Origin: a virus
Taxonomy: Duplodnaviria > Caudoviricetes
Virus record (IMG/VR): IMGVR_UViG_3300025924_000017
Location: 1-64,000 of that record
DNA: 64,000 nt
Reading direction: 5' to 3' (one strand)
How positions within the stretch are numbered: position 1 is the first letter of the stretch; each line of letters opens with the position of its first letter. The notes under the pieces were generated by a model. The model had not been told where the DNA came from. It worked only from the letters and a program-made list of their open reading frames with translations, and made no database searches. Below are positions 48,577 to 64,000 of this stretch, piece by piece. Both the position numbers and the translations under genes were made by a program.

Positions 48577-48969
48577 TCACTGCCCCGGCGCGAGATAGAA
48601 CCGAATCCACTGCGCCACGACCGGGCCATTACCCTTGAAGCCGTCCTCGGACGCTTCCGCCACCCGGGCGATTTCGTCCCATGACTGGTCCGCGCCATCG
48701 GTCGCGAACTGAGCCGCCGCCTCGTGCACGTAATTCGACCCGTAACCGGTCAGCGGGTTTGCCAGAAACGCTCCGCAATTTTCGCAGTGCTGGGGCGTAT
48801 CCGCCTCACCGCCTCCGTAGGAGTAGGGGCCTTTTGGGAACGCATCCGACTCATAGGTGACTTCGTCCGCGATGTTGGCGGGCGCTTTGCCCTCGGCGGT
48901 CAGATCACGCCGGATGGCATTGCCGCAATCTTCACAGTAGAGCGCGGCCCGGTAGACAAAAGCTTTCAT
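48577..48969 (-). CDS. conserved phage early protein (YCEDC..DTPQHC..CG..L.NPLT)
   Basis: GGAGTCGCAAATG start. Confidence 0.75.
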   Translation of the reverse strand: MKAFVYRAALYCEDCGNAIRRDLTAEGKAPANIADEVTYESDAFPKGPYSYGGGEADTPQHCENCGAFLANPLTGYGSNYVHEAAAQFATDGADQSWDEIARVAEASEDGFKGNGPVVAQWIRFYLAPGQ

Positions 48970-49000
48970 TTGCGACTCCGTTGGTTCTTGATTGTGCGCC

Positions 49001-49063
49001 CTTGTAGCATGGAATTATTTTGTCTGTCAAGGGTTGACAGTTCAGATTTCGCCGTGCTAGAAC
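49001..49063. promoter_or_regulatory. back-to-back sigma70 promoter pair
   Basis: TGTCAA-GGG-TTGACA 49025-49039 with a -10 on each side. Confidence 0.8.
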
Positions 49064-49091
49064 AGCGTCACAACGAAAAACGGAGTCGCGA

Positions 49092-49301
49092 ATGAAACGG
49101 AAAGGTGTAACGGGTTTGAAACTGTGGCGCGCCCGCGTCCAGAAAGTCTACGCCTCGCTGGCCGAACTGCGGGCCTATGACGAGACGTTCGAGATCGTGA
49201 AGCGCTGCGGCTATCGCAACGCGGAATCGCTGTGGAACGCCAACCCCCTATTGCAGGGTTCGACCCACCCGGCGGATTTTGGAGTCGCAAATGCACACTG
49301 A
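49092..49301 (+). CDS. hypothetical protein
   Basis: GGAGTCGCGAATG start. Confidence 0.7.
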   Translation: MKRKGVTGLKLWRARVQKVYASLAELRAYDETFEIVKRCGYRNAESLWNANPLLQGSTHPADFGVANAH

Positions 49302-49491
49302 CGAATTCTGCAAGACCTTGGACGCCTTGGATCGCGCGGACGCGATCAAGGCCATTCACGCCGCTTTCCTCCAACTGAGCGCGATGGGCGTGCAGGTCGA
49401 AGTCAACGGCACGACCTATGACAATGAGCCCGCCATCTCGCGGCTGAAAGCCTGCATGGTCTCCGCCGGTCACATCGGGTTCACGTCATGA
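49291..49491 (+). CDS. hypothetical protein
   Basis: GGAGTCGCAAATG start. Confidence 0.7.
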   Translation: MHTDEFCKTLDALDRADAIKAIHAAFLQLSAMGVQVEVNGTTYDNEPAISRLKACMVSAGHIGFTS

Positions 49492-49790
49492 CGGCGCGCC
49501 GGGGCACACGCTCGATCCTGCCGAACAGCAACAGCGCCATCCTCGCGCCGATGGCTTACGGGCTACAAGTCCGCTGGCACGAAGAACTGGACTCGCATGT
49601 GCTCTACCACGGCGAGCAGCGCGTGGCGGGCCATCACAACGGCTTTTCCTGCCACGAACTCGCCAAGCGCATCCTGTCCGGCAATGCCGAACGCGCGACG
49701 GCGCAATTCGACTACATCACCGCGTGTGGCGGTCAGCATTACATCACACACGAAGCCTTCGCAACCATCCTCACAGGAGTCACACACTGA
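49488..49790 (+). CDS. hypothetical protein
   Basis: ATGA overlap. Confidence 0.65.
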   Translation: MTARRGTRSILPNSNSAILAPMAYGLQVRWHEELDSHVLYHGEQRVAGHHNGFSCHELAKRILSGNAERATAQFDYITACGGQHYITHEAFATILTGVTH

Positions 49791-49791
49791 C

Positions 49792-49917
49792 ATGCATACC
49801 CGGCACCACGGCCACGGCCATCACGGTGGCGCGGGCTTCGCGCTCCTCGCCTTCATCCCCGGCTATCGGTTTTTCCTGATGCTGATGGCCTTGATCGTGA
49901 TGTGCGGCGGGACGTGA
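49792..49917 (+). CDS. His-rich small membrane protein, paralog 1
   Basis: MHTRHHGHGHHGG..PGYRFFLM..CGGT. Confidence 0.65.
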   Translation: MHTRHHGHGHHGGAGFALLAFIPGYRFFLMLMALIVMCGGT

Positions 49918-49940
49918 TCCCACCGCCGTCCGGCACTTGC

Positions 49941-49967
49941 GTTAACTGTTCGCGGCGATTGGTAAAC
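49941..49967. repeat. 27-bp palindrome
   Basis: GTTAACTGTT-N7-ATTGGTAAAC. Confidence 0.8.
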
Positions 49968-50128
49968 GCGGGCGAACCGCCGGGCTCAGTCCTCCGGGTA
50001 TGTGGTGGCGCGCGCCGCCTTGTCCCACGAGTAGACATGGAACGCGCGATCAGTTGGGAGAATGAGCCTCATCAACTGGTAAGAGGCCTCAAGATCAATC
50101 GCGCGGGCCAATGCTTCGTATAGGGCTT

Positions 50129-50479
50129 TCATGCGGCGGCGCGCGCCTCGCGTACGACCTCAGCCCATAACGCCTTGCACTCGGCGCGATGCTTCGCCGC
50201 CGCCCCGGGCGTGAACTGGGATTCGAAACTGTCACAGCCCTTCATGAGTTTCCCCAACTGATTGTTGAGCGCGATGGACTCAAAAAGCCCGGTGGTTTTG
50301 TCGCCCGCATTGCGCATGCGGCCCGTGTAGACGATCCAGAGGAAGTCCACGCCCTCAGTTTTGTCATAGGCCGCTTGCCACGCTTCGGGCGTGCCAGCCT
50401 TCACGGCTTCCATGTGGAAGTGTGCGATGGTTTCCGCCAGCACACCCTCACCCAGCAAAAAATCGGCGTGGGACTTCAT
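50129..50479 (-). CDS. hypothetical protein
   Basis: ATGA overlap. Confidence 0.65.
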   Translation of the reverse strand: MKSHADFLLGEGVLAETIAHFHMEAVKAGTPEAWQAAYDKTEGVDFLWIVYTGRMRNAGDKTTGLFESIALNNQLGKLMKGCDSFESQFTPGAAAKHRAECKALWAEVVREARAAA

Positions 50480-50649
50480 GCGGCGGCCTTGTCATACTGG
50501 ATTTTGACGCCGAGACCCTTCGCCTCCCGGTACCACACCGGGTAGATCGAGACCGCTCCCCACGGTTTTGTCTCCGTGACCCAGTAGGTCCACTTCAAGC
50601 GCTCGCTCGGCAACCGCCGATAAGCACGCACCAGAAATTCCGATTTCAT
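50476..50649 (-). CDS. hypothetical protein
   Basis: GGAGTCGCAAATG start. Confidence 0.7.
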   Translation of the reverse strand: MKSEFLVRAYRRLPSERLKWTYWVTETKPWGAVSIYPVWYREAKGLGVKIQYDKAAA

Positions 50650-50679
50650 TTGCGACTCCGTGTGTGTTGTTGTGCCGGT

Positions 50680-50740
50680 CTTATCGCATAAAAGATTTTG
50701 TCCGTCAAGTGTTGACATTCACAAAGCGCCCGGCTATAAC
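50680..50740. promoter_or_regulatory. back-to-back sigma70 promoter pair
   Basis: CGTCAA-GTG-TTGACA; -10 GATAAG (-) and TATAAC (+). Confidence 0.8.
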
Positions 50741-50774
50741 CACGCCACAACAACGAACCAACACGGAGTCGCAA

Positions 50775-51281
50775 GTGAATCACGAACTCAGGATCAAATA
50801 CGGCACTAGCCGCGCCGCCAATACCTACGGTTACGGGCTTGTGAGCCTGTACGACGGCGGTAAGAAAGTCGCGGCCTGCAACGGCGGCGGTTACGACATG
50901 CGCGGGACGGTGTTCGGCGAATGGCTCGAAAAGACCTATCAGGAACGCCTCGTCGCGCTGGCGAAGGCAACCAAGGGCGCATTTGCGCGCGCCAACTGGA
51001 ACGGCGAACTGGGTGACGAGTCGAATTACGTCCGCCTCCCCGCTGATCGCAAGGTCGAGCTTTACGGCGGCACCTATTACGAGAACGGCAGCCGCGAGAG
51101 CGTTCACGGCCGCAAGGGTGCCCAGAAATACATCGCCAAGCCGCCGCATGTGACGTTGGATGGCGGTTGCGGGTTCGAGTCGATTTACCGGATCGCCAAG
51201 GCCATCGGCCTCAACGTCCGCACGGTTGACGCTGGGAAGAAACTCGACATCCTCCTGATCGAGGACACGAAACCCGGGTAA
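50775..51281 (+). CDS. conserved phage early protein
   Basis: GGAGTCGCAAGTG start; CNGGGYDMRGTVFG..LDGGCG. Confidence 0.75.
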   Translation: MNHELRIKYGTSRAANTYGYGLVSLYDGGKKVAACNGGGYDMRGTVFGEWLEKTYQERLVALAKATKGAFARANWNGELGDESNYVRLPADRKVELYGGTYYENGSRESVHGRKGAQKYIAKPPHVTLDGGCGFESIYRIAKAIGLNVRTVDAGKKLDILLIEDTKPG

Positions 51282-51368
51282 CAGTTGCGTCACGCCTGCG
51301 CCCTGCGTTCCCAAGACGCGCAGGCTTGACACTCCGGCGGATGCGCCCGCGAAGCCATCCGCAAGCCT

Positions 51369-51408
51369 GCCCCGGCGCTGGATCACTCCGGCGTCGGGGC
51401 TCTTTTTT
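51369..51408 (+). terminator. intrinsic terminator
   Basis: 14-bp stem with G-U pairs, then TCTTTTTT. Confidence 0.75.
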
Positions 51409-51416
51409 CTTGGGAT

Positions 51417-51443
51417 GTTAACCAGTCGCGTCGATTGGTAAAC
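51417..51443. repeat. 27-bp palindrome
   Basis: GTTAACCAGT-N7-ATTGGTAAAC. Confidence 0.85.
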
Positions 51444-51462
51444 GCGGGTGGCGCGGGCGCGC

Positions 51463-51846
51463 TCAGGTGATCTCGCGCCCGGTGTCGGCACACACGACCG
51501 GCTCATCTTCCTCCGCCATGCAACCGAGCGCCACGACGCGCCAGCCATCGCGCAGATTGAGCCGGACGGCTTCGAGCACGTCGCGCAGGTGTGCGCGGAC
51601 CGCCTCATAGCTCAATATCTCGCCGTCCGAGGTCATGAAGAAACACTCATAGCCGCCGGGCCAAGCGAACTTGCCCGCGCGCAGGGCCGACTTGACCTGC
51701 TGCATCCCTTTCAGGCCCAGAACGAAGTCGCGGCCGTGCACCGCGTAAGCCGCACGCAGCGGCGGCAGCTTGTTCCAGTCCGTGACCCGGGTGTCGTAGA
51801 GATCGCCGCCGGTCGCGACGAACAGGTGATCTGGCAGCTTGCTCAT
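51463..51846 (-). CDS. conserved phage early protein
   Basis: LRAGKFAWPGGY..FMTSDGE.LS motif. Confidence 0.7.
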   Translation of the reverse strand: MSKLPDHLFVATGGDLYDTRVTDWNKLPPLRAAYAVHGRDFVLGLKGMQQVKSALRAGKFAWPGGYECFFMTSDGEILSYEAVRAHLRDVLEAVRLNLRDGWRVVALGCMAEEDEPVVCADTGREIT

Positions 51847-52187
51847 AGCAGCACCGTGACCAGTGTCGGCGTGCGCGCTGAGTCCTCTTCCTTGCGGCTG
51901 TCGTAGGGCGTGCGGCCGAGCGCGAACGCCATGACGTCGAACTGTGGGCAATCGCGACCGCCGTTCTTGATGGTCCTGCCACTGTCATGGAAGCACACGT
52001 CCACGCAATCCGCCGGGCCGCCCTTGACATAGGGCTGGAACGCAAACGTCACGCGTTTGCCGTTGCTGAGCTTGGCGGTGATCGTATAGTTGCCATCCGG
52101 AACTTCCACGCACAGATGCGGGTTGGCGTTGAACCCGGCGAAACCCGCCGCGACCGCCTCGTCTTGGGATGCTTCCTTGAAATTCAT
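51843..52187 (-). CDS. hypothetical protein
   Basis: GGAGTCGCAAATG start. Confidence 0.72.
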   Translation of the reverse strand: MNFKEASQDEAVAAGFAGFNANPHLCVEVPDGNYTITAKLSNGKRVTFAFQPYVKGGPADCVDVCFHDSGRTIKNGGRDCPQFDVMAFALGRTPYDSRKEEDSARTPTLVTVLL

Positions 52188-52212
52188 TTGCGACTCCGTT
52201 TGTTGTGCGCCT

Positions 52213-52273
52213 CTTATAGCAGCAATTATTTTGTCCGTCAAGTGTTGACATTCAAAAATGTCCGGGCTATAAC
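52213..52273. promoter_or_regulatory. back-to-back sigma70 promoter pair
   Basis: ATTATTTTGTCCGTCAAGTGTTGACA; TATAAG (-), TATAAC (+). Confidence 0.85.
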
Positions 52274-52302
52274 GGCCGCAACAAACACAAACGGAGTCGC
52301 AA

Positions 52303-52731
52303 ATGGCAAAGCTTTCTGCAAACGGCCGCACGATTGTTGGCAGCATCGATTACATCGCCAGCACAAAGCGCGTCATGTCCGATGGCGTCATTCTGGAGAA
52401 CAAGGGCCACGGCTGGAAGGTCGCGGGCAAGGTGAAGCCGGGCTTCACACCCGAGCAGGCTTTCACGCAGGGCAAGGCCAAGCATGAAGCCACACTCGCC
52501 GCGCGTCCTGCGTTGGCGGCCTATCGCGCCGCCCTGCATGACGCCTGCGGGCTCGCCAAGCGCTGGGCGCTCCACACCGCGATCACCTTGATGCCGGACG
52601 ACCCGGATGGCGTGTGGTCGAACTGCGTGGACAGCTATCCCAAAGTCGATGCGGACCTCGATGACATCGTGAGGCTTTGCGGGCTCTACACCCGCGCCAA
52701 GGCAGAGAAGGAGGAGGCGGCGGTCGCGTAA
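52303..52731 (+). CDS. hypothetical protein
   Basis: GGAGTCGCAAATG start. Confidence 0.75.
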   Translation: MAKLSANGRTIVGSIDYIASTKRVMSDGVILENKGHGWKVAGKVKPGFTPEQAFTQGKAKHEATLAARPALAAYRAALHDACGLAKRWALHTAITLMPDDPDGVWSNCVDSYPKVDADLDDIVRLCGLYTRAKAEKEEAAVA

Positions 52732-52748
52732 GCGCCGCCAGCGCGCAC

Positions 52749-52775
52749 GTTTACCAATTGCGGAGATTGGTTACC
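52749..52775. repeat. 27-bp palindrome
   Basis: GTTTACCAAT-N7-ATTGGTTACC. Confidence 0.85.
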
Positions 52776-52817
52776 GCGCGGTATGCGGGCGCGGGGCTCC
52801 AAGCCGCGCCGGTTTGG

Positions 52818-53234
52818 TCAACAATCCGGATCGAAGTCGTGCCACTCCTGCACCTCGTCGGGCTGGCCGTCGTGCTCGTATTCGCCTTCGCCCTCCGGGG
52901 CCAGTAGGGTGGCATCCTGTTCCGGGTCCACGCCAATCTCATGATCGACCGGAAAGCCGCATGAGAAGCCGGACTCGAAGTCCACGCGGATGCAGTGTGC
53001 GCCCTCGTACTCGACTTTCTCGACGGTCTCGAACTCGAACTGGAATTCGGGATGCTCGCTCTTCAGTTGCGGGCTCTCCTCCTTGTTCTCGCACGCGTCG
53101 AAATAAGCTTCGTCGGCGAACCGATCCGCTTCAAGGTCGCAACGCTGGCCGACGCGCAACTGATTCACCCGGCACTTGACGACGCCTTGCCGCTCGACCG
53201 TGTTGACCGTGTTCGATCCGTCGCCCCGGCTCAT
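52818..53234 (-). CDS. acidic hypothetical protein
   Basis: ATGA overlap; ends DGQPDEVQEWHDFDPDC. Confidence 0.7.
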   Translation of the reverse strand: MSRGDGSNTVNTVERQGVVKCRVNQLRVGQRCDLEADRFADEAYFDACENKEESPQLKSEHPEFQFEFETVEKVEYEGAHCIRVDFESGFSCGFPVDHEIGVDPEQDATLLAPEGEGEYEHDGQPDEVQEWHDFDPDC

Positions 53235-53491
53235 TGCACGACCTCCGACGCATCGACAAACACCCAATGGTGCGTTGCCTCAAAGCGAAACAGCGAACGC
53301 GGCTTTTCCGCCAGCGTGCGCAGGTCGCCCTCGGCGAGCATGTCCGGCGTGGCGGTGACCACAAGACACGGCCCCTGACCGCCCGGCACGGACTTGACCG
53401 GCGTTCCCGCCGGGATCGTGAGATCGTAGCCGAATTGCGGCGCGGAACTACCCGGCACCCAGCGCTTCGTGATCGTTTCCTTGATCTGCAT
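53231..53491 (-). CDS. hypothetical protein
   Basis: GGAGTCGCAAATG start. Confidence 0.72.
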   Translation of the reverse strand: MQIKETITKRWVPGSSAPQFGYDLTIPAGTPVKSVPGGQGPCLVVTATPDMLAEGDLRTLAEKPRSLFRFEATHHWVFVDASEVVQ

Positions 53492-53523
53492 TTGCGACTC
53501 CGTTTTTCGTTTTCAGTGACGCC

Positions 53524-53584
53524 CTTATAGCCGAAAGAAATTTGTCCGTCAAGTGTTGACAATTCAAAATCGTTCGGCTATATC
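53524..53584. promoter_or_regulatory. back-to-back sigma70 promoter pair
   Basis: CGTCAA-GTG-TTGACA; TATAAG (-), TATATC (+). Confidence 0.8.
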
Positions 53585-53590
53585 TATGCA

Positions 53591-53714
53591 CGACACGGGG
53601 ATGGGGCCGTACGGTAAGCCCCTGCGGCGCGGAAGACGCCAAGGCCCCCGGTGCTGGTCCCACGGAAAGACCAACGGCAAGGGGTTCACCGGCCCCGCGC
53701 CCAAAAGATTGAAC
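53591..53714 (+). ncRNA. structured 5' leader, riboswitch-like candidate
   Basis: About 130-nt leader versus about 25 nt in sibling units; nested stems GGGGCCG/CGGCCCC and TGGTC/GACCA. Confidence 0.45.
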
Positions 53715-53724
53715 GGAGTCGCAA

Positions 53725-53967
53725 ATGAGCATTTCCCTGAATACCAACCTCACCGACGCGGGCGTCGTTTGCACTTTCGCCGACACCGGCGAATATGCAG
53801 GCATCGTGCGCTCCTCGATCACCAAAGGCGGCGGGATTGAGTGGCTGGCTTGCCCGGCCTTCGGCTTCGGCGTGAACCAGTTGTTCAGCGATCTGATAGC
53901 CGCCGAGTACCTGATCCTCGCATGGGCCATCGAAGCCCGCGCGAAGTCGCTGAGCGTGGCGGGCTGA
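53725..53967 (+). CDS. hypothetical protein
   Basis: GGAGTCGCAAATG start. Confidence 0.7.
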   Translation: MSISLNTNLTDAGVVCTFADTGEYAGIVRSSITKGGGIEWLACPAFGFGVNQLFSDLIAAEYLILAWAIEARAKSLSVAG

Positions 53968-53968
53968 T

Positions 53969-54160
53969 ATGGGCACGTGGCTGGACGACCTCAAGAAGAC
54001 CGATCCGGCACTCGCCGCCGACTGGGCGATTGTCGGCAACCAGAGCAGGGCTTCGCTGCGCAACATGGTCCGCGCGCTCGAAATCATGCCGCGCCTGAAT
54101 ACCGACGAGGACAACAAGCGGCTCGCCGCCGCTAAGCGCATCCTCAAGGCTAAGAGCTAA
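53969..54160 (+). CDS. conserved small phage protein
   Basis: IVGNQ..LRNMVRAL..LNTDEDNKRL.AA. Confidence 0.7.
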   Translation: MGTWLDDLKKTDPALAADWAIVGNQSRASLRNMVRALEIMPRLNTDEDNKRLAAAKRILKAKS

Positions 54161-54243
54161 CCGCCCGCGACGGCCAAGCGGGCAACCGGGACTTGTGGCG
54201 CGGTGCAGCACCGATCCGCGCCTGCCCGGCAGCTTACCCACAC

Positions 54244-54270
54244 GTTTACCAATTGCCGCTATTGGTTACC
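54244..54270. repeat. 27-bp palindrome
   Basis: GTTTACCAAT-N7-ATTGGTTACC. Confidence 0.85.
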
Positions 54271-54284
54271 GGCCCGTGAACGCC

Positions 54285-54509
54285 TCACACGTTCGCGGAG
54301 TCGTCGAACGCGTGAGGGTTGACGTGCGACGGATCGACCGACGCATGAAAGACGACCGTGTCGCCCGGCATGATCTCAGCGACCGCGCGCGCATCGTAGC
54401 GGCGGTGGATGAAGTCCGGCGCACCGAACACACGGCGCGCCGCCTCAAAGTGGGCGTCCTTGCCCTGATCGGGATGCACGACGCCGATGAAATGAACCGC
54501 GCTCTTCAT
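54285..54509 (-). CDS. conserved small phage protein
   Basis: Likely start MKSAVHFIG..ARRVFGAPDFIHR.YD.RA..DTVVF. Confidence 0.65.
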   Translation of the reverse strand: MKSAVHFIGVVHPDQGKDAHFEAARRVFGAPDFIHRRYDARAVAEIMPGDTVVFHASVDPSHVNPHAFDDSANV

Positions 54510-54733
54510 GCTGCTTTCTCCCGTAATTGCATCAACAGGCGTTGCGCCACACGCATCTCGCGGCCGTGACGATACGCGCCCGGAACGGTGGTGCATTCGT
54601 CGTCTAGGGCGGCGCTTGCCGCTTTCAGGGCTTCAGCGCCGAACTCTTTGAGAATGGAGTCCAGCGCGGCATCTCTGGCTTGGATGCACTCACCTGCTTC
54701 GCGTATCGCCTTGTCGCTCCAATCGTGACTCAT
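54506..54733 (-). CDS. hypothetical protein
   Basis: AGG RBS, overlap chain. Confidence 0.6.
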   Translation of the reverse strand: MSHDWSDKAIREAGECIQARDAALDSILKEFGAEALKAASAALDDECTTVPGAYRHGREMRVAQRLLMQLREKAA

Positions 54734-54734
54734 C

Positions 54735-54947
54735 CTAGTTCACCCGGATGGTTTCGACGTACGCGGCGATCTTGTCGCCAAGCACCGCATCCGTGATCGC
54801 CGGGTCAGCCGCGATGGCAGCCTCGCCGACGCGAAAGATTTTGGGAATGTCCATGATGCCGATCTGGACACCGCCGCACCGCGCGTTATAGGCGCGGTCG
54901 ATGCGGGCCTCGTTGATCTTTTCCTGCTTCGACTGTCTCTTGGGCAT
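54735..54947 (-). CDS. hypothetical protein
   Basis: GGAGTCGCAAATG start. Confidence 0.72.
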
Positions 54948-54983
54948 TTGCGACTCCGTTGTGGTTTGTTTGATTGTGACGCT

Positions 54984-55044
54984 GTTCTAGCATGGATTAT
55001 TTTGTCCGTCAAGTGTTGACATTCACAAAACGACCGGCTATAAC
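54984..55044. promoter_or_regulatory. back-to-back sigma70 promoter pair
   Basis: 26-mer identical to 52225-52250; TAGAAC (-), TATAAC (+). Confidence 0.85.
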
Positions 55045-55068
55045 AGCAGCACAACAACGGAGTCGCAA

Positions 55069-57055: not shown

Positions 57056-57056
57056 G

Positions 57057-57117: not shown

Positions 57118-57141
57118 ACGCCCACAAACACGGAGTCGCAA

Positions 57142-57588: not shown

Positions 57589-57603
57589 GGGCCGATCAGG
57601 TCC

Positions 57604-57640
57604 CGCGCCCGCCGCCGATTGCGACCCGGCGGCGGGCGCG
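57604..57640 (+). terminator. perfect 14-bp hairpin with ATTGCGACC loop
   Basis: CGCGCCCGCCGCCG / CGGCGGCGGGCGCG. Confidence 0.65.
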
Positions 57641-57654
57641 TTTGCGTTGGTCGC

Positions 57655-57681
57655 GTTAACCAGTCACCGCAATTGGTAAAC
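57655..57681. repeat. 27-bp palindrome
   Basis: GTTAACCAGT-N7-ATTGGTAAAC. Confidence 0.85.
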
Positions 57682-57693
57682 GCGCGCGCCGCC

Positions 57694-57840
57694 CTACCTC
57701 GGCGCGATCTCACCCAGCCGCTTGAGCCAGCCCTGCGTGTTGAACCACGCGCACACGGTTGGCATGAACCAAAGGCGCGAGCTTTGGCCGCTGTTCTGAA
57801 ATGCGGCTTCCCACATGATCGCCTGACCGAGGTGCTTCAT
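57694..57840 (-). CDS. hypothetical protein (48 aa)
   Basis: ATGA overlap; hand translation MKHLGQAIMW.. Confidence 0.5.
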   Translation of the reverse strand: MKHLGQAIMWEAAFQNSGQSSRLWFMPTVCAWFNTQGWLKRLGEIAPR

Positions 57841-58175
57841 GCAACCACCCCGGCCAGAATTCCATCCGCCAGCGCCGCACGCTTTGCGCGCATCGTGTGC
57901 GCCGGATCGTGGTCCGAAATGTAGGCCGCGAAGTAGCGCTCGTCGAACTTGAAAAAGCCAAGCCGCACGTCGGCCGTGGTCGCCTCGCAGATGGCGAAGC
58001 CCACGCTCGTGTAGTGCATCGGCGGCAGCATTTCGAGAAAGTACCAGTAGGTTTCCTCGTCTACTTCCACAAACCCGGCGAGCAGCCGGGCGCGGTCGAA
58101 GCGCTGGGCATGCGGAAGCTCCGGATTGAGCCAGCCGTAAAACCCGTCCTTATCGAATTTGCCTTCGAACTTCAT
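57837..58175 (-). CDS. DUF1419-like protein
   Basis: EVDEETYWYFLEMLPP..FAICE; GGAGTCGCAAATG start. Confidence 0.65.
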   Translation of the reverse strand: MKFEGKFDKDGFYGWLNPELPHAQRFDRARLLAGFVEVDEETYWYFLEMLPPMHYTSVGFAICEATTADVRLGFFKFDERYFAAYISDHDPAHTMRAKRAALADGILAGVVA

Positions 58176-58201
58176 TTGCGACTCCGTTTGTTTGCAGGCA
58201 C

Positions 58202-58263
58202 CTTATCGCATAAAACATTTTGTCTGTCAACAGTTGACAATTCAAATTCTGCCGTGCTATAGA
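58202..58263. promoter_or_regulatory. back-to-back sigma70 promoter pair
   Basis: TGTCAA-CAG-TTGACA 58225-58239. Confidence 0.78.
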
Positions 58264-58291
58264 GGCGGCACAAACAGAAACGGAGTCGCAA

Positions 58292-58684
58292 ATGAAGTAT
58301 GCAGTCAATGAACAAGGGCAGGTCACCTGCGACGGCGAGCCTATGCTCGTACTCGCGCAGGCCGTTTGGGGCGATGGTGCGCCGAGCGCCGCCGCCCGGG
58401 ATGTTGCCCAGCAGCGCGCCAAAGACGCTTTCAAGGCGCTGGAGTTGATCGAACGCCTCGCCCGCATGGGTTTTTACGCCTACCCGGACGGCGAAAGCTT
58501 TTCCGACGCGCAGGCCGAAGACGCGCTGGTCGTGCTCAACCAGATGATCGAGAACGCGCGCAAGCTTGCCCCGGATGCAGTCCCCGGCCCATATATCACG
58601 ACCGGGCACGACCTCGACGGCGACGGGCCTTGGTATGCGCCGGGCATCGGCGAAGTCGAAGCCCCGCAGGAGGATCAGCCATGA
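58292..58684 (+). CDS. hypothetical protein
   Basis: GGAGTCGCAAATG start. Confidence 0.72.
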   Translation: MKYAVNEQGQVTCDGEPMLVLAQAVWGDGAPSAAARDVAQQRAKDAFKALELIERLARMGFYAYPDGESFSDAQAEDALVVLNQMIENARKLAPDAVPGPYITTGHDLDGDGPWYAPGIGEVEAPQEDQP

Positions 58685-58749
58685 TCTAGCACGACGGCGA
58701 AGTCCTCGACCTCGGTTTGCGTTCCACAGCGGAACGCCGACCGGGCTGA
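58681..58749 (+). pseudogene. relic paralog of 59271..59429
   Basis: ATG ATC TAG CAC GAC GGC GAA GTC CTC versus ATG CCC TAC CAT GAC GGC GAA GTC CTC. Confidence 0.55.
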
Positions 58750-58753
58750 GGCC

Positions 58754-58780
58754 CTTAACCAATTACCGCAACCGGTTAAC
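58754..58780. repeat. 27-bp palindrome
   Basis: CTTAACCAAT-N7-ACCGGTTAAC. Confidence 0.8.
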
Positions 58781-58829
58781 GCCCGCGACGAGAGAGGGCA
58801 GCGCGGCCTTACGACCGCGCTGGACCTCC

Positions 58830-58994
58830 TCACTCCATTTCCTCTGCCCCATCCTGCACCGTGTGCGCGGTAATGTCGTAACGCTCTAGTTGCGCGTTCA
58901 CGGCATCCATTGCAGCACCGACGCCGGTCTCTGCTTCGCTCCTTGAGTCCGCCGCGATCACGAACGCGACCGTAACAATGAACTGTTTTCCCAT
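58830..58994 (-). CDS. hypothetical protein (54 aa)
   Basis: GGAGTCGCAAATG start; hand translation MGKQFIVTV.. Confidence 0.68.
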   Translation of the reverse strand: MGKQFIVTVAFVIAADSRSEAETGVGAAMDAVNAQLERYDITAHTVQDGAEEME

Positions 58995-59026
58995 TTGCGA
59001 CTCCGTTGTTTGTTTTCAGTACGGTT

Positions 59027-59088
59027 GGTATAGCACGACGGATTCTAAAATGTCAACACTTGACGGACAGAATAATTTGTGCGATAAG
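59027..59088. promoter_or_regulatory. back-to-back promoter pair, inverted orientation
   Basis: 59051-59076 is the reverse complement of 52225-52250 (25/26). Confidence 0.8.
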
Positions 59089-59116
59089 GTTCGCACAACA
59101 ACCAACGGAGTCGCAA

Positions 59117-59284
59117 ATGAAGTATGATTTTCGGACAGCCGACAACGCCGCTAAGCCCCACGTCGCTGTTGTGGAAGTGGAGAGCGGCGAGACGGCTGCA
59201 ATTGTCTACATCAAAGACGGGAAAGTTGATGACGCTGAACGTCTGGCCGAGCTTTGCGTGGGGGTGTTCAATGCCCTACCATGA
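59117..59284 (+). CDS. hypothetical protein
   Basis: GGAGTCGCAAATG start. Confidence 0.7.
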   Translation: MKYDFRTADNAAKPHVAVVEVESGETAAIVYIKDGKVDDAERLAELCVGVFNALP

Positions 59285-59429
59285 CGGCGAAGTCCTCGGC
59301 CTCGACGCTGACGGTTGTGTGATCCAGTGGGACGCCGACCGGGGCGCGGCCTACAATTCCGGCGAGACGCTGGAAGAGTTCGGCGCGGACAATCTGCGCG
59401 CCCACGAACGCGGGAGGCTGGGCCTATGA
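59271..59429 (+). CDS. small acidic protein
   Basis: MPYHDGEVLG.. Confidence 0.6.
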   Translation: MPYHDGEVLGLDADGCVIQWDADRGAAYNSGETLEEFGADNLRAHERGRLGL

Positions 59430-59632
59430 GCAGTTGGATTTATCGCGTCGAGCTAAACGCACGCAAGGCCGGGGACATCGGCACGTTCACGCGCTGCACG
59501 TTCGATGTTATCGCCGAGCAGGCGCGCGGCGCGGATGGAGCGTACACCCGGGCCATCGCAAAGGCCACCGCGCACGGCTACGAAACACGCGGCGCAAATA
59601 GCGCTGTGCGTATGAGCGAGGTACACGCATGA
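59426..59632 (+). CDS. hypothetical protein
   Basis: GGAGG RBS, ATGA overlap. Confidence 0.62.
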   Translation: MSSWIYRVELNARKAGDIGTFTRCTFDVIAEQARGADGAYTRAIAKATAHGYETRGANSAVRMSEVHA

Positions 59633-59805
59633 GCGAAGACGCGATCAGCGGCAAAGACATCCGCGAGTTCCGGCTCTACTTGAAGCAATGCACCGACCGG
59701 CAGGTTGAGGGCGTGTTCGAGCGTGAGAAGGCCGCAGGCCGGGAGACGTATATGGAACTTGCCCGCGCCGAGGCCGAGCACCGGGGCATTACCATCTGGG
59801 GCTGA
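59629..59805 (+). CDS. hypothetical protein
   Basis: GAGG RBS, ATGA overlap. Confidence 0.58.
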   Translation: MSEDAISGKDIREFRLYLKQCTDRQVEGVFEREKAAGRETYMELARAEAEHRGITIWG

Positions 59806-59907
59806 CCACCATGTCATAAAATCCCCCAACTGTGACATGCCGAGTCAACGATTCCAACAGCTTAGGCCCTGCCTGTCACGTTTCACGAAACCTAGGAAAG
59901 GAAACCC

Positions 59908-60048
59908 ATGCATTCAGGCCATCACCGCCACCACGGCGGACATCATGGCGGGCACCACCTCGGCGCGCTCGCCTTCCTCGCCCTGCTTCCCGGCTATCGC
60001 TTCTTTTTGATGCTCGCCTTAGTCGTGGTCCTGTGCGGCGGCACCTGA
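59908..60048 (+). CDS. His-rich small membrane protein, paralog 2
   Basis: AAGGA RBS; MHSGHHRHHGGHHGGHH..PGYRFFLM..CGGT. Confidence 0.68.
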   Translation: MHSGHHRHHGGHHGGHHLGALAFLALLPGYRFFLMLALVVVLCGGT

Positions 60049-60093
60049 TACTGTCATTCAAGGGTTGACAATTGACCCCGGCCGTGCGATAAG
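60045..60093 (+). promoter_or_regulatory. sigma70-type promoter
   Basis: TTGACA 60065-60070; GC-GATAAG. Confidence 0.7.
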
Positions 60094-60141
60094 CCTTGCA
60101 ACGTCGGGATGACCCGGCGACAATCCAAACCGGAGTCGCAA

Positions 60142-60738
60142 ATGGCAAAAGAACAGTTCGCATTGCTCGCCGTGAATGAAACGGACAATTGGGACCAGTC
60201 CATTCTGGACAAGCACGGCTTTGAAGCCGCGTTCGGCGTCTACTTGATCCGCCTCGGCGAGGCCACGCATTGTTGCAGCCTCACCGCGTCAACGTGGGCC
60301 GAGTTTTACGAGAACGCCTTCATTTACGATCACGAAGACGCGGCGGCCGACAAAGCGGCGGAAGACCTCGCCCACGAGAACGGCGGCGAGTTCGGGCGCT
60401 ATCTCACCTACGTCGATCCTGACCAGAAGAGCCGCTACCTCGGCGCGGCGATCACGGTCGAAGTGGACGCGGATGAATTCGAAGGCGGCAAGAAATCCGA
60501 CGCCTATCACGAGGCAATCTGGACGGAAGCCCGCGAGGCCGCAGCCACCGGCGCGATCAGCGAACCGGCGATCCTGTGGAGCGAGGAATACTACGCCCAG
60601 CAGGAAGAGTACGCCGCCAAGCGACGCGCAGAGAACCGCAGGCCCTTGGCGCGCCCGATCCTGCCGTTGTTCTTCGCCGCCGCCCAGCGCGACGGATTCG
60701 CCACGTACGAAGGCGCAATCGAGCACGGCTGGCTTTGA
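60142..60738 (+). CDS. acidic hypothetical protein
   Basis: GGAGTCGCAAATG start. Confidence 0.75.
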   Translation: MAKEQFALLAVNETDNWDQSILDKHGFEAAFGVYLIRLGEATHCCSLTASTWAEFYENAFIYDHEDAAADKAAEDLAHENGGEFGRYLTYVDPDQKSRYLGAAITVEVDADEFEGGKKSDAYHEAIWTEAREAAATGAISEPAILWSEEYYAQQEEYAAKRRAENRRPLARPILPLFFAAAQRDGFATYEGAIEHGWL

Positions 60739-60824
60739 TCCTGCGCGTGCCCTGCCACGGGCCACGCAGTACACCGGCCCGGCGCTGCCTGTCACGGCAC
60801 GCCGGGCCGGAGCATTTTGGGCGC

Positions 60825-60873
60825 ATTATTTTGTCCTAAAGGTGTTGACAATTGGATTCCGCCCGGCTATAAC
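60825..60873 (+). promoter_or_regulatory. sigma70-type promoter with no conventional gene downstream
   Basis: ATTATTTTGTCC; TTGACA 60845-60850; GC-TATAAC. Confidence 0.75.
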
Positions 60874-61001
60874 ACCGCCATGCCTCGCGGCGACAGAGCA
60901 GGACCTCTGGAAGGCGCGGCGCGAAGTCCTCCCGGGAAAGCCCGCCAGACGCGGGATCGCAGGGAGGCCGGGACACGCGGACCCGCCGATCTGCGCCGAG
61001 C

Positions 61002-61076
61002 CTACCTTGCGCGATATCGTGCGCTACCGTGCGCACTACCTTGCGCGCTACCGTTCGCTGGCACGATCTGGGGCGC
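61002..61076 (+). repeat. CTACC tandem cluster
   Basis: 5 units; 61024-61076 matches 62233-62285 at 50/53. Confidence 0.8.
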
Positions 61077-61103
61077 GCGCCGTCCGGCGCGGCCTGTGCC
61101 CGC

Positions 61104-61174
61104 GTTTACCAGTTGGAAGGATTGGTTAACGCCGCCTCGGAGTCCGCGTTAACCAATTGCGGCTATTGGTTAAG
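61104..61174. repeat. two 27-bp palindromes
   Basis: Copies at 61104 and 61148. Confidence 0.85.
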
Positions 61175-61238
61175 ACCATCGCAAATTTTGTTAACCATAG
61201 GGCGTGCCGATCTGGCACGCCCACGATCTGCCGCGTGG

Positions 61239-61691
61239 CTAGGCGCTCTCCTCCTTTCGAGCCTTGACGCGCACGTAGGGCTTCTCCTCGTAGTGATCGA
61301 TCTTCTCGCCGGAGGGAAGGTCCCACGGCATGAGCATGAAGGTCACGCCAAAGGGATGGAATTCCGCGTTCTGGGGCGACAGGTTTTCAGCCTTCATGTA
61401 ACTGGCGATGTACCAGTCGCGCGCGTCACCCTCGAACGTGAAGCAGGTCTTGTTGGAGCGCAGACGATACGCAGGCAACGCGCCCACCAGATAGATGGCA
61501 TGATCCGTATAGGTGTCACCAGCCTTGAACTGCCCACGGCGCACGCCGTCCATCTCTGCCGTGTAGGTGTTCGTGCGATCATACTCCGCACCTTCGTAAG
61601 TCACACCACTGATCGTGACGGACACGGGCTTGATGTTGGAGAGATGGCCGAGGGATGCGAGGTAGGCCACGACGTTTGCGGAAACAGACAT
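61239..61691 (-). CDS. hypothetical protein
   Basis: GGAGTCGCAAATG start. Confidence 0.75.
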   Translation of the reverse strand: MSVSANVVAYLASLGHLSNIKPVSVTISGVTYEGAEYDRTNTYTAEMDGVRRGQFKAGDTYTDHAIYLVGALPAYRLRSNKTCFTFEGDARDWYIASYMKAENLSPQNAEFHPFGVTFMLMPWDLPSGEKIDHYEEKPYVRVKARKEESA

Positions 61692-61715
61692 TTGCGACTC
61701 CGTTGTTGTGCGCAC

Positions 61716-61776
61716 TTTATGGCATGCCTTGTTTTGTCTGTCAAGGGTTGACATATAGAATTCTTCGCGCTATAAC
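61716..61776. promoter_or_regulatory. back-to-back sigma70 promoter pair
   Basis: TGTCAA-GGG-TTGACA 61739-61753; CATAAA (-), TATAAC (+). Confidence 0.8.
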
Positions 61777-61802
61777 GGCAGCACAAACAAACGGAGTCGC
61801 AA

Positions 61803-62198
61803 ATGATCTCACACGCAGACGTTCTCAAAATCGACCGCGCCATCTCCGGCAAGCTGGTCGAGCTTGCCATCGCCAAAGGCTACAGCCTGACCGTCCGCAC
61901 GAACGACGACGACGCGCACAACGTCATCAAGTCGCGCGATCCGAAGGTGATCCTCGACGAACTTCATTCCGTGGACGACGAGCGCCTCTATGTGCACGAT
62001 GCAAACGGAAAGCGCCTCGGCTGGATTTACTTCGTGTTCGGCGAATCCGGCTGGGACGTGATCTGCGATCACACCACAGGCCGGGCGATCACGGAACTGG
62101 TGGACACAGGCCCGATCAAGGCGATCTCGGATGGTATCTGCGAGAACCCGGAGAACTGGAGCGCGATACTCGCGCAGAACGGCGCGGCAGTCGGCTGA
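61803..62198 (+). CDS. conserved phage early protein
   Basis: GGAGTCGCAAATG start; GYSLTV..DDERLY..GWIYFVFG..DVICDH. Confidence 0.75.
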   Translation: MISHADVLKIDRAISGKLVELAIAKGYSLTVRTNDDDAHNVIKSRDPKVILDELHSVDDERLYVHDANGKRLGWIYFVFGESGWDVICDHTTGRAITELVDTGPIKAISDGICENPENWSAILAQNGAAVG

Positions 62199-62200
62199 GC

Positions 62201-62285
62201 CTACGGCGCGCTACCGTTCGCTGGCGCGCTTCCTACCGTGCGCGCTACCTTGCGCTCTACCGTTCGCTGGCGCGATCTGGGGCGC
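62201..62285 (+). repeat. CTACC tandem cluster
   Basis: Units at 62201, 62211, 62233, 62245, 62257. Confidence 0.8.
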
Positions 62286-62337
62286 TGGCGCGCGCCAGCC
62301 CGGCGGCGGCGGTATGGTTAACGAAAATCGCCCCGGC

Positions 62338-62364
62338 GTTAACCAATTCAGTGTATTGGTTAAC
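62338..62364. repeat. 27-bp palindrome
   Basis: GTTAACCAAT-N7-ATTGGTTAAC, perfect arms. Confidence 0.9.
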
Positions 62365-62412
62365 GCGCCGTTAACCACGTCGGCGCCCTGTCCCGATCTG
62401 GCACAAACGCGT

Positions 62413-62445
62413 CGAGGCGCAAGCGGCTGAGCCGCTTGCGCCTCG
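62413..62445. terminator. perfect 15-bp hairpin
   Basis: CGAGGCGCAAGCGGC-TGA-GCCGCTTGCGCCTCG. Confidence 0.6.
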
Positions 62446-62480
62446 CGTAGGGTTTGGAGTGCGGCGCCGCGCCGCGCGGA

Positions 62481-62693
62481 CTAGTGGGCCGTCATACTCG
62501 GATCGAGTCGGACGCGTTCCAGTGTAACGAGTGCGCCTGACTCGGACTCGGCGATGAGTGCCAAGCATTGCCCGGCCATGAGTGCGGCGCGCGCATGCTT
62601 GAAATTGTCGCGCGCGTCGCCCGCCGCGCTATCGCCCGTGAAAGGGGTTGTAACCCGCTCGCGTCCCTCAGAAAGTTCAACGTGATATTTCAT
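62481..62693 (-). CDS. hypothetical protein
   Basis: GGAGTCGCAAATG start. Confidence 0.7.
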   Translation of the reverse strand: MKYHVELSEGRERVTTPFTGDSAAGDARDNFKHARAALMAGQCLALIAESESGALVTLERVRLDPSMTAH

Positions 62694-62739
62694 TTGCGAC
62701 TCCGTTTGCCTGTCGCGCGACTATCGCCGCGACACGTGA

Positions 62740-62768
62740 AAGCTAAGCCCGGCATTGTCGCAAGTCAA
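62740..62768 (-). promoter_or_regulatory. sigma70-type promoter
   Basis: TTGACT-N17-TAGCTT on the - strand. Confidence 0.65.
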
Positions 62769-62856
62769 GGCATTAGAGTCGTAATTCGCGACATTCTTTC
62801 CAAGCGGTAAAAGCCCGCTCCCTTAACCCGGCATTATCCGACAATTGCGCACCACA

Positions 62857-62904
62857 ATTATTTTGTCTTTAGACCGTTGACAATTCAAACAAGGGGATTA
62901 GATT
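62857..62904 (+). promoter_or_regulatory. sigma70-type promoter
   Basis: ATTATTTTGTC; TTGACA 62877-62882; TAGATT. Confidence 0.7.
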
Positions 62905-62946
62905 GATGGTCACGGCGTTAGGCCGGAATGACAAACGGAGTCGCAA

Positions 62947-63078
62947 ATGAAAATCGCATTTTTCTCCATCGCCCTGTTTATCAGCTTTCAAGCTGGGGTT
63001 TCCTCGTATGTCGCGGACAAGGTTGGCGCGGAAATTACGCGCGACTTCGCGCCGCTCAATGCTATCTTCCAGCACTAA
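62947..63078 (+). CDS. small protein with hydrophobic or signal-like N-terminus
   Basis: GGAGTCGCAAATG start; MKIAFFSIALFISFQAG.. Confidence 0.62.
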   Translation: MKIAFFSIALFISFQAGVSSYVADKVGAEITRDFAPLNAIFQH

Positions 63079-63088
63079 GGGGGACACA

Positions 63089-63478
63089 ATGCGTAACGCT
63101 TATCTGACATTCCCGAATCAGTCGAATGACGGAATCTCCTTTACGAAACCTGAGGGACGATTCGGCAATCTCAAGGCGCGCCTTGAGAAAAGCCTTGTCC
63201 GCGCATTTGGCGGATTCACCGCAACCCGCGCGGATGGGGCTTGGCACGATGTCGAGACTGACATCGTGCATGCCGAGTCCGTGACGGTCTATAAAATCGC
63301 GGGCGATTGGAGCACGGAAAACGAGTCCAAGCTTCGCGGTATCGCGGCGCGCTATTGCGCACTCGGCGAGCAAATTTGCGTGCTGGTCGAATTCGCCAAC
63401 GGCGAGTCGGAATTCATTTCGCCGGAGGCTGATCTAGCTGCAACGCTTGGCAGCGCGCGCGCCTTGTTGGCGGCTTAG
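63089..63478 (+). CDS. hypothetical protein (DUF3574-like)
   Basis: AFGGFT..DGAW..ESVTV..YC..EQ.CV pattern. Confidence 0.6.
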   Translation: MRNAYLTFPNQSNDGISFTKPEGRFGNLKARLEKSLVRAFGGFTATRADGAWHDVETDIVHAESVTVYKIAGDWSTENESKLRGIAARYCALGEQICVLVEFANGESEFISPEADLAATLGSARALLAA

Positions 63479-63488
63479 TCGAAACCAA

Positions 63489-63513
63489 GGCGCGCCGCAT
63501 AGTGCGGCGCGCC
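63489..63513. terminator. perfect 11-bp hairpin
   Basis: GGCGCGCCGCA-TAG-TGCGGCGCGCC. Confidence 0.5.
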
Positions 63514-63533
63514 GCAACCCTACGGAGTCGCAA

Positions 63534-63677
63534 ATGTCCAGTTATCTGACCCTTGAGCCGCGCCCAATCCTGAAAGCCTTGGCGCACTATGCGGCGAATA
63601 CGCGTGCAAGCGAAGTTGCGCGATTGGAGCGAGTCGCAAAGCTTGCGGCGCGCTATTGCGCCAAAGGCGCGGACTAA
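63534..63677 (+). CDS. hypothetical protein
   Basis: GGAGTCGCAAATG start. Confidence 0.62.
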   Translation: MSSYLTLEPRPILKALAHYAANTRASEVARLERVAKLAARYCAKGAD

Positions 63678-63719
63678 GCCCGCGTTAGTGTCCTGTTTAC
63701 CGAGTCGCGCATGCGGTAA

Positions 63720-63768
63720 ATTATTTTGTCTTGCATGCGTTGACATTTGGAAAGCCCGGGCTTAGCTT
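63720..63768 (+). promoter_or_regulatory. sigma70-type promoter
   Basis: ATTATTTTGTC; TTGACA 63740-63745; TAGCTT. Confidence 0.72.
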
Positions 63769-63812
63769 TCGTGTGTCGCGGCGATTGTGTCGCGCAAATT
63801 TTGGAGTCGCAA

Positions 63813-64000
63813 ATGTCCAAGCCTTCTGATGCCAAAGATAACAGAGTCCGCGAATTGGCACGCGTGCGGGATATGCTGGCTGATGCCGCAAGCTTCGCTT
63901 CAACGGCTGACGCCGTGCTAGTCGAAGTTGCGGCCAAAGGGGTCAAGCATGCGTTGCAATGGACCAAGGGGACACGCGTTACGGACCAAAGGCTAGTCCG
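63813..64000 (+). CDS. hypothetical protein, truncated by the window end
   Basis: GGAGTCGCAAATG start, open to 64000. Confidence 0.6.
   Translation, partial: MSKPSDAKDNRVRELARVRDMLADAASFASTADAVLVEVAAKGVKHALQWTKGTRVTDQRLV

Follow-up and report, generated by a model that had tools for sequence, protein, structure and literature searches.

A recurrent thirteen-nucleotide start-site motif in a small-gene cluster of a phiCbK-like jumbo phage

A start-site motif repeated between the terminase and portal genes

The DNA analysed here (the window) comprises the first 64 kb, positions 1 to 64,000, of the 225,611-bp genome (G000) of a phage (Duplodnaviria; Caudoviricetes), known solely from metagenomic data and filed in IMG/VR as IMGVR_UViG_3300025924_000017. 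Between its large terminase (TerL) and portal genes this genome carries a cluster of small genes, many of which open with the same 13 nucleotides, GGAGTCGCAAATG. In the RNA this motif is composed of GGAG, the Shine-Dalgarno (SD) element, a fixed spacer UCGCAA and the start codon AUG. Allowing at most one mismatch, it occurs 24 times in the window, 22 of these copies being exact, with 15 on the plus and 9 on the minus strand at precisely the positions given in a preliminary description of this DNA, as against a mean of 0.12 and a maximum of 1 in dinucleotide-preserving shuffles. The two one-mismatch variants are GGAGTCGCGAATG at 49082 and GGAGTCGCAAGTG at 50765. That description had also reported the absence of the motif before 48.9 kb, and indeed the first copy lies at 48967 and none of the preceding window positions holds one. 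In the full genome the count rises to 26 (24 exact and 2 with one mismatch) through additional copies, found by a genome search, at 64438 (+) and 138882 (-). The latter is the sole copy outside 48,967-64,450, the remaining 25 being confined to this interval, which lies between TerL and the portal gene; all run in the sense of the genes.

Each of the 26 copies ends in the start codon of a real open reading frame (ORF), into which it runs in frame; these ORFs span 43-230 codons with a third-position GC content of 0.60-0.83, and a public pipeline, run on a different assembly of this phage, called products of identical length. On the plus strand the motif is found at 49082-49094 (the variant ending in GCGAATG, 69-residue product), 49281-49293 (within the 3' end of the upstream gene and with no promoter near, 66 residues), 50765-50777 (with a GTG start, 168 residues), 52293-52305 (142 residues), 53715-53727 (80 residues, behind a long leader), 55059-55071 (79 residues), 56054-56066 (230 residues), 57132-57144 (77 residues), 58282-58294 (130 residues), 59107-59119 (55 residues), 60132-60144 (198 residues), 61793-61805 (131 residues), 62937-62949 (43 residues), 63524-63536 (directly after a strong hairpin, 47 residues) and 63803-63815 (115 residues). 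The copies on the minus strand lie at 48967-48979 (opening the ORF 48577-48969, a first cistron of 130 residues), 50647-50659 (57 residues), 52185-52197 (114 residues), 53489-53501 (86 residues), 54945-54957 (70 residues), 58173-58185 (112 residues), 58992-59004 (54 residues), 61689-61701 (150 residues) and 62691-62703 (70 residues).

Alignment of the copies gives a sharply bounded conservation profile: the 13-base box is conserved at nearly 100%, the last bases of the leader at 50-80% and codons 2-5 at roughly 35-55%, with a constant distance from GGAG to ATG throughout. The A/C-rich leader noticed previously is real, for the 12 bases upstream of GGAG comprise 156 A, 108 C, 31 G and 17 T (85% A or C). 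Likewise, the GANTC methylation site said to be embedded in the motif is present in every copy as GAGTC, though the genome holds 545 GANTC sites in all, about 0.66 of the mononucleotide expectation. No other recurring string of SD, spacer and start codon was found in the whole genome. As to the host side, among 401 genomes of one alphaproteobacterial order a single copy is present in 23, the reversed control giving 22, and in no genome are there two. The motif is thus not a host feature; collections of metagenomes and bacterial genomes, scanned for the exact 14-mer, gave singletons only among the matches listed, which is uninformative. Only its GGAG pairs with the anti-SD of 16S rRNA; extended pairing was considered and rejected, the spacer forming no better duplex with a Caulobacterales 16S rRNA than shuffled spacers do.

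The TerL protein (gene at 43805-46540) is 52% identical to those of the Caulobacter phage phiCbK and its relatives, and as in the phiCbK-like phages its gene is split by an intein with Intein_splicing and Hint domains. Downstream of the cluster lie a peptidase gene and then the portal gene. In phiCbK the same interval holds a 10.3-kb terminal repeat together with further small genes of no assigned function (PMC3556154), and the terminal-repeat region of phiCbK-like phages is dense in CtrA-dependent promoters (PMC9437464). This synteny suggests that the cluster is an early, first-entering block of the genome. Pfam and PHROGs scans of the 39 proteins encoded by the cluster and its upstream flank (47565-63677) yielded two matches to domains of unknown function and a few PHROGs, of which only one, labelled DNA ligase, has a function attached; no regulator could be recognised. 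A search for near-identical DNA in cultured phages gave no match for the cluster and, for the rest of the window, only a 90-bp match to a Caulobacter phage; an Rfam scan of the window gave none. Elsewhere in the window, at 28426-29691, a BCS1-like AAA ATPase with BCS1_N, AAA and lid domains is encoded.

Promoters, leaders and operon layout

A scan with an Escherichia coli-type promoter model was blind to the promoters of the cluster, finding two against four expected, and the consensus of Caulobacter RpoD (sigma-73), which reads TTGaCgS, 10-14(-15) nucleotides, GCtANAWC (PMC8144410), was used in its place. It matches upstream of 20 of the 26 copies with scores of 10-12 out of 12; in the form seen here, TTGACnn and GCTAnAwC separated by a gap of 14-15 nucleotides, such promoters precede 19 or 20 copies. 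Ten of the promoter sites share a palindromic core, GTCAAnnnTTGAC, which is made of two overlapping -35 boxes and serves divergent transcription. Back-to-back pairs of this kind are centred on the cores at 49026-49038, 50704-50716, 52237-52249, 53548-53560, 55008-55020, 58226-58238, 59052-59064 and 61740-61752, and at 56002-56014 and 57081-57093 a motif gene lies behind the rightward half only. The -10 box is followed by a GC-rich hexamer and then by the leader, which starts with ACAAC; with transcription taken to begin at ACAAC, GGAG would begin at about +8 to +20. The distance from the -10 box to the motif is 14-26 nucleotides for 19 copies, and 130 nucleotides once (the copy at 53715, whose leader folds no better than shuffled sequences; z = 0.36). 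The copy inside the upstream gene is the one without a promoter.

A second promoter class, with -10 boxes of the form TTAGAT or TTAGCT and a small hairpin leader, serves five or six copies at a distance of 32-46 nucleotides. This class (hereafter class B) precedes the copies at 62691 (-10 of the TTAGCT type, with hairpin leader), 62937 and 63803, and the copy at 60132 also has a hairpin leader, 38 nucleotides past its -10 box. In the region covering 62690-63815 of the window and 64340-64450 of the genome, class-B promoters consist of TTGACA, about 13 nucleotides, and GGGnTTAGATTG or TTAGCTTT, and a short conserved hairpin leader (for example CGCGGCGATnGnCGCG) stands between promoter and motif.

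Of the 25 motif genes in the cluster, all but one (24) head their transcription unit. Conversely, 17 of 18 genes lacking the motif start between 14 nucleotides before and 10 nucleotides after the stop of the upstream gene, mostly overlapping it through ATGA-type junctions. Taken together, this first-cistron rule and the overlap of the genes behind imply that the motif is the only independent ribosome entry of each short operon. The start regions of motif genes have a weaker predicted minimum free energy of folding than those of other genes (-8.2 versus -12.5 kcal/mol).

Two further elements of the promoter landscape were observed. One back-to-back -35 core stands alone at 26522-26600 of the window, away from the cluster, with an ATG about 7 nucleotides past a -10-like box, which is possibly a leaderless start. 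Furthermore, a palindrome of the form CGTTAACCAAT-N9-ATTGGTTAACG forms arrays directly behind TerL and where early units converge (46577-46642, 47426-47550, 57045-57075, 57653-57683, 61121-61157 and 62317-62380), and GTTAAC sites are concentrated in the same part of the genome, with 21 of the 26 lying within 46.5-64.7 kb. Its spacing does not match the N7 of CtrA boxes, and it could be a bidirectional terminator, an insulator or a protein-binding site.

Relatives and constraint on the motif

The only close relative in the collections searched, recovered by an exact 14-mer viral scan, is an 11.2-kb IMG/VR fragment (L012), which carries 12 exact copies of the motif and one degenerate copy in the same design. 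It shares 67% identity with the phage in TerL and 38-59% in orthologous early proteins, among them the 198-residue product of the motif gene at 60132, whose L012 orthologue also bears the motif. The orthologues have the same N-terminus, and in two pairs a motif-bearing first cistron in one phage corresponds to a motif-less coupled internal cistron in the other, showing that the motif is tied to the position rather than to a particular gene. Over the 38 copies of the two phages a single change is seen in 228 spacer positions, whereas in these cassettes the adjacent leader and the promoter spacers are free to vary. This comparison shows that the 13-mer remains identical across a divergence at which silent sites are saturated and that its spacer is under strong purifying selection. 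The constraint beyond ribosome binding that had been proposed for the spacer is hence borne out, both by the 12 exact copies in L012 despite protein identities of 38-59% and by the gain or loss of the motif exactly at the ATG of orthologues, and the free decay in relatives that would point to simple descent by duplication was not seen, the L012 copies being exact. The class-B promoter with its hairpin leader is also common to the two phages (L012 sites 894 and 1584), and the CGTTAACCAAT-N9-ATTGGTTAACG palindrome recurs upstream of promoters in L012.

More distant relatives retain parts of this arrangement. In L113 (IMGVR_UViG_3300050821_010968; TerL identity 52%, GC content 51%) back-to-back TTGACAA promoters and A/C leaders are followed by GGAGTC(G/A), 3-6 variable bases and ATG. 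This layout is found at 15 starts, including operon-internal ones far from any promoter, and 8 of the 10 ORF starts of the GGAG type in L113 have TC as the next two bases as against the 6% or so expected by chance (P about 7e-9). Between the early cassettes of this contig (12900-21450) there are also at least six operator-like palindromes, AAGAGTCACA-N12-TGTGACTCTT, which contain GAGTC/GACTC. The 308-kb relative L111 (IMGVR_UViG_2974566103_000001) combines promoters resembling CtrA boxes with a GC hairpin, CTGGAG and a variable spacer; after its TerL gene, at 14600-22400, we observed 13 copies of a cassette, GTTAAC/GTTTAC-N5-TTGTTAAGAAATAG, similar to TTAA-N7-TTAA. Judged by their sequence these cassette promoters are probably CtrA-dependent, which fits the CtrA-rich terminal repeats described in this phage family (PMC9437464). 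Like the CtrA-box promoters of phiCbK-like phages, those of our phage occupy the position after TerL, where each repeated promoter serves one of many small genes. Unlike them, they are near-consensus RpoD promoters accompanied by a start motif, and the TTAA-N7-TTAA box of L111 has only one counterpart in the entire genome. No recurrent start context was detected in the first 40 kb of phiCbK or in a Colossus-sized contig (L112), and a still more distant locus, L312/L313, which encodes a homologue of the 198-residue early protein at 40% identity, has sigma-70-like promoters and lacks the motif. A portal-based search for further relatives found none. Conservation is thus nested in three tiers, with the cassette design present in several lineages, the leader with GGAGTC(G) in three and the whole 13-mer in two.

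These comparisons bear on the simplest explanation of the motif, in which it acts only in cis as the best ribosome-binding site for short A/C leaders and is carried at the 3' end of a promoter cassette whose copies recombination spreads and keeps alike, with no factor reading it in trans. GGAG, a 6-nucleotide spacing and an unstructured A/C leader make a good initiation site, and the weak folding of the start regions agrees with this. The motif also travels with the promoter cassettes, which lie at junctions of gene content between the phage and L012. In this the cassettes resemble the mobile regulatory cassettes of T4-type phages known as PeSL (PMC2839356, PMC4122927), repeated modules of an early promoter and a stem-loop that border small variable genes at the points where related phages have gained, lost or exchanged genes; here, repeated promoter cassettes and hairpins bound units that differ in gene content from L012. 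However, PeSL are defined by promoter and terminator, whereas the most conserved part of the present cassettes is the 13-mer at the ATG. An action in cis alone would not account for one change in 228 spacer positions while the neighbouring leader and promoter spacers drift, conversion tracts would not be expected to end exactly at the edges of the box, and the analogous cassettes of L111 and L113 function even though both their spacer sequence and its length vary. Nor does the spacer offer special complementarity to a Caulobacterales 16S rRNA, and the complementary hairpin loops described below would be left unexplained. We consider this explanation unlikely.

The tier shared by all three lineages, L113 included, is GGAGTC(G), and this favours another alternative, namely that GAGTC is methylated by the host CcrM and constitutes a downstream GcrA box, through which host or phage GcrA would boost or time the early promoters, with the SD element overlaid on it. 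As in Caulobacter GcrA boxes (PMC4647560, PMC9976885) the GANTC is followed by G, and with transcription taken to start 6-7 nucleotides after the -10 box it would fall at about +10 to +24 in 19 of the 26 copies. Downstream GcrA boxes are reported at +5 to +30 (PMC9976885), and when positions -20, -30 or +5 to +30 relative to the predicted starts are allowed, 19 copies would fall inside and 7 outside. The phage itself encodes a GcrA homologue of 135 residues (G000 214461-214868; Pfam GcrA E = 7.6e-18, both domains covered) and, at 171039-171842, an orphan NPPY methyltransferase. The latter, a 267-residue protein with FCGTGS and NPPY motifs, has weak matches to UPF0020 and Eco57I-methylase and no solved relative by sequence, and may act on either DNA or rRNA.

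Several features nevertheless speak against a GcrA box. The register of the motif is kept with the ATG and not with the promoter, and seven perfect copies are either 32-130 nucleotides from the -10 box, which would put them out of range, or promoterless; the class-B leaders contain no other GANTC nearer the transcription start, and in L113 GGAGTC occurs at internal cistrons far from promoters. No more than 7 of the 13 invariant bases would be explained by a GcrA box. The preliminary description had remarked that the site matches the GcrA preference except at its first base, and this is so: in the context GGAGTCG the first base is G instead of Y, leaving YGAKTCK and YGAKTCG unmet, on the opposite strand (CGACTCC) both K positions fail, and GGAGTCT ranks 30th of 32 for GcrA occupancy (PMC4647560). 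Methylation of the virion DNA is uncertain since no CcrM-family methylase (PF01555) was found in the phage, promoters so near consensus should not depend on an activator, the motif is missing from phiCbK although that phage has a GcrA homologue (PMC3556154), and there are 545 other GANTC sites in the genome. Control through methylation or GcrA is consequently given a low probability, somewhat below that of action in cis alone.

Complementary hairpin loops and a putative early operator

The 9-mer complement of the motif, TTGCGACTC, occurs twice in the intergenic DNA of the cluster, and both occurrences are in the loop regions of GC-rich hairpins at operon ends. The hairpin at 55791-55822 (+) terminates the operon 55069-55784, headed by the motif copy at 55059, and its loop UUGCGAC (9 nucleotides with UC) complements GAGUCGCAA. 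A near copy with the same loop is found at 56982-57013 (+), at the end of the operon 56064-56965 headed by the copy at 56054. A third hairpin at 57604-57640 (+), ending the operon 57142-57588 behind the copy at 57132, has an unrelated 14-bp stem, and its loop, AUUGCGACC, again holds UUGCGAC. In the best predicted fold of each of these three UUGCGAC is fully unpaired, and the predicted loop-motif duplexes range from -9.8 to -14.1 kcal/mol. On the minus strand the hairpin at 54284-54316, at the end of the leftward operon 54947-54285, has the loop ACGACUCCG, complementary to CGGAGUCG with four of eight bases unpaired, and a GTTAAC-type palindrome at 61122-61156, after the leftward gene 61691-61239, partly exposes the loop GACUCCG.

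Overall, 8 of the 22 hairpins of the cluster carry a complement of the motif of at least 6 nucleotides in or next to the loop, and 6 of the 22 one of at least 7 nucleotides; shuffled motifs lead one to expect 0.74 and 0.15, respectively (P<0.0005). Each such complement has the same sense as the transcript ending at its hairpin. A stricter hairpin definition leaves 5 of 32 with a complement (P=0.01), and under neither definition is the loop enrichment seen in the rest of the genome. Three of the eight complement-bearing hairpins are rated only partly exposed. In two others, a terminator at 51369-51400 and a palindrome at 46614-46644, the best fold pairs most of the complementary bases, and both were removed from the set. 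In L012 a hairpin of homologous design after a motif gene exposes UGCGAC, a second candidate being ambiguous, and in L113, with its variable spacer, complementary hairpin loops were not found. From these few cases it appears, suggestively, that a frozen spacer goes with complementary loops. An antisense small RNA was also considered and rejected: the only wobble-tolerant match to the complement of the 13-mer lies inside a coding region, as would occur by chance.

The partial inverted copies at operon ends could alternatively be further sites for a DNA-binding protein of phage or host which, bound to the 13-bp motif, would block initiation or elongation in the manner of the stoperators of cluster A mycobacteriophages, asymmetric sites that also measure 13 bp, named as a contrasting case to the mycobacteriophage start-associated sequences discussed below (PMC3203893). 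The motif is indeed of suitable size, asymmetric, always co-oriented with transcription and near promoters. Such an operator would require neither the exact ATG register nor inverted copies in the loops of GC-rich palindromes, the paired inverted copies are 104-118 bp apart with no helical phasing, and no DNA-binding protein was recognised among the 39 scanned proteins. We regard it as highly improbable. The same unphased spacings led us to discard DNA looping between the paired copies, and the strict ATG register led us to reject a protective site of the Chi type close to the end of the genome.

The data demonstrate a start site that heads first cistrons with translationally coupled genes behind it, keeps strict register with the ATG and contains bases that are under strong selection though dispensable for the ribosome. 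With moderate confidence we propose that the early transcripts share the 13-mer as their ribosome-entry site and that, acting on RNA, it is also an operator. Under this proposal the host RNA polymerase with its housekeeping sigma factor would read about 25 compact promoters, giving transcripts that open with an A/C leader of 8-20 nucleotides followed by GGAG, UCGCAA and AUG. Ribosomes would enter each early operon only at the 13-mer of its first cistron, the later cistrons relying on coupling, and because there is a single ribosome entry per operon, a factor acting on the 13-mer would control the whole operon. The additional bases would then be the operator for one trans-acting partner that governs all the early operons at once and most likely shuts them down when the early phase is over. 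Candidates for this partner are the 3'-hairpin loops with UUGCGAC(UC) or strings of the CGACUCCG type, exact complements of the spacer and the SD element, which might mask the ribosome site by pairing with it, acting either inside a single mRNA or from stable 3' fragments as these build up; a RegA- or RegB-like protein or nuclease is an equally possible partner. More tentatively, the loops (UUGCGAC(UC) and CGACUCCG) might constitute a self-contained RNA circuit that, with the build-up of early RNA and its 3' decay products, shuts about 25 operons together with no repressor gene, to which GGAGTC(G) could add a coupling to CcrM and GcrA; we think this full version doubtful, if less so than action in cis alone. 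The preliminary description had conceived the motif as a dual-purpose element, SD plus either a methylation-sensitive DNA site or an RNA operator. Its first half stands in that the motif is more than a ribosome-binding site, and of its two options the RNA operator fits better, because the motif is fixed to the ATG while its distance from the -10 box varies, and because GGAGTC precedes operon-internal cistrons in L113 and complementary loops exist; the DNA option is left with the low probability given above.

A number of points weigh against an RNA operator, particularly one read by the loops. Clean exposure of the complement is limited to three hairpins, two of which are copies of each other, and taken alone the loop enrichment in L012 falls short of significance (P about 0.35). 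Searches for the complement found no free-standing small RNA that contains it. On the side of a protein partner, the 39 scanned proteins include no recognisable RNA-binding domain, and homologues of RegA, RegB and bS21 were not found in the phage. Predicted folds leave the motif site no more unpaired than other starts, and the part conserved over the longest range, GGAGTC(G) with its GANTC, is unexplained by pure spacer pairing. The transcription starts, the 3' ends and the early timing are themselves inferred.

The best mechanistic precedent for such an SD-overlaid operator is, by analogy, the RegB/S1 site of phage T4 (GGAGRAYARAA; PMC1702504, PMC3014915), which likewise places a constraint on the bases after the GGAG of early-message SD elements: its 11-nucleotide target overlaps early SDs, and a trans-acting factor shuts the early mRNAs off (PMC1702504). 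The T4 site differs in being degenerate and A-rich, whereas UCGCAAA in the present motif has C at positions 6 and 8, where RegB sites almost never have it, and the phage has no match to PF10715. In its distribution the motif is reminiscent of the start-associated sequences (SAS) and their extended forms (ESAS) of cluster K mycobacteriophages (PMC3203893). These are also 13-bp, asymmetric sequences with an SD core just before starts, which are mostly ATG; they have one orientation relative to the genes, occur only in the non-structural part of the genome, persist from one related phage to another in front of differing genes, are all but lacking in host genomes and have conserved positions that 16S pairing does not account for. 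Their function was stated to be unknown (PMC3203893). Being unrelated in sequence (GGGATAGGAGCCC) and found in phages of another host phylum, they are analogues and not homologues of the present motif. Moreover, SAS lie 3-7 bp from the start codon, which here is within the invariant block, and the motif described here marks first cistrons behind sigma-70-type promoters in the terminal early block of a phiCbK-like jumbo siphophage; the 17-bp inverted repeats upstream in ESAS have no equivalent here, their place being taken by an A/C-rich leader. Complementary hairpin loops are a further difference. What is new in the present case is that the start codon is strictly part of the motif, that motif genes come first with coupled cistrons behind them and that conservation is nested over three lineages, together with the embedded GANTC site in a phage family that encodes GcrA and the complementary hairpin loops.

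SAS have been known since 2011 with no function assigned, and the present case is unusually clean, with 26 near-identical copies that obey a strict first-cistron rule, coupled genes behind each site and three related lineages in which the element is fixed to different extents. Two testable links emerge, one to the complementary loops and the other to GANTC and the GcrA homologue of the phage, and the model host of this phage family, Caulobacter crescentus, is genetically highly tractable. Should one operator indeed switch all the early operons, it would represent a simple and general means of timing host takeover in large phages, and the same element would be a compact, portable module for expression and shut-off in alphaproteobacteria.

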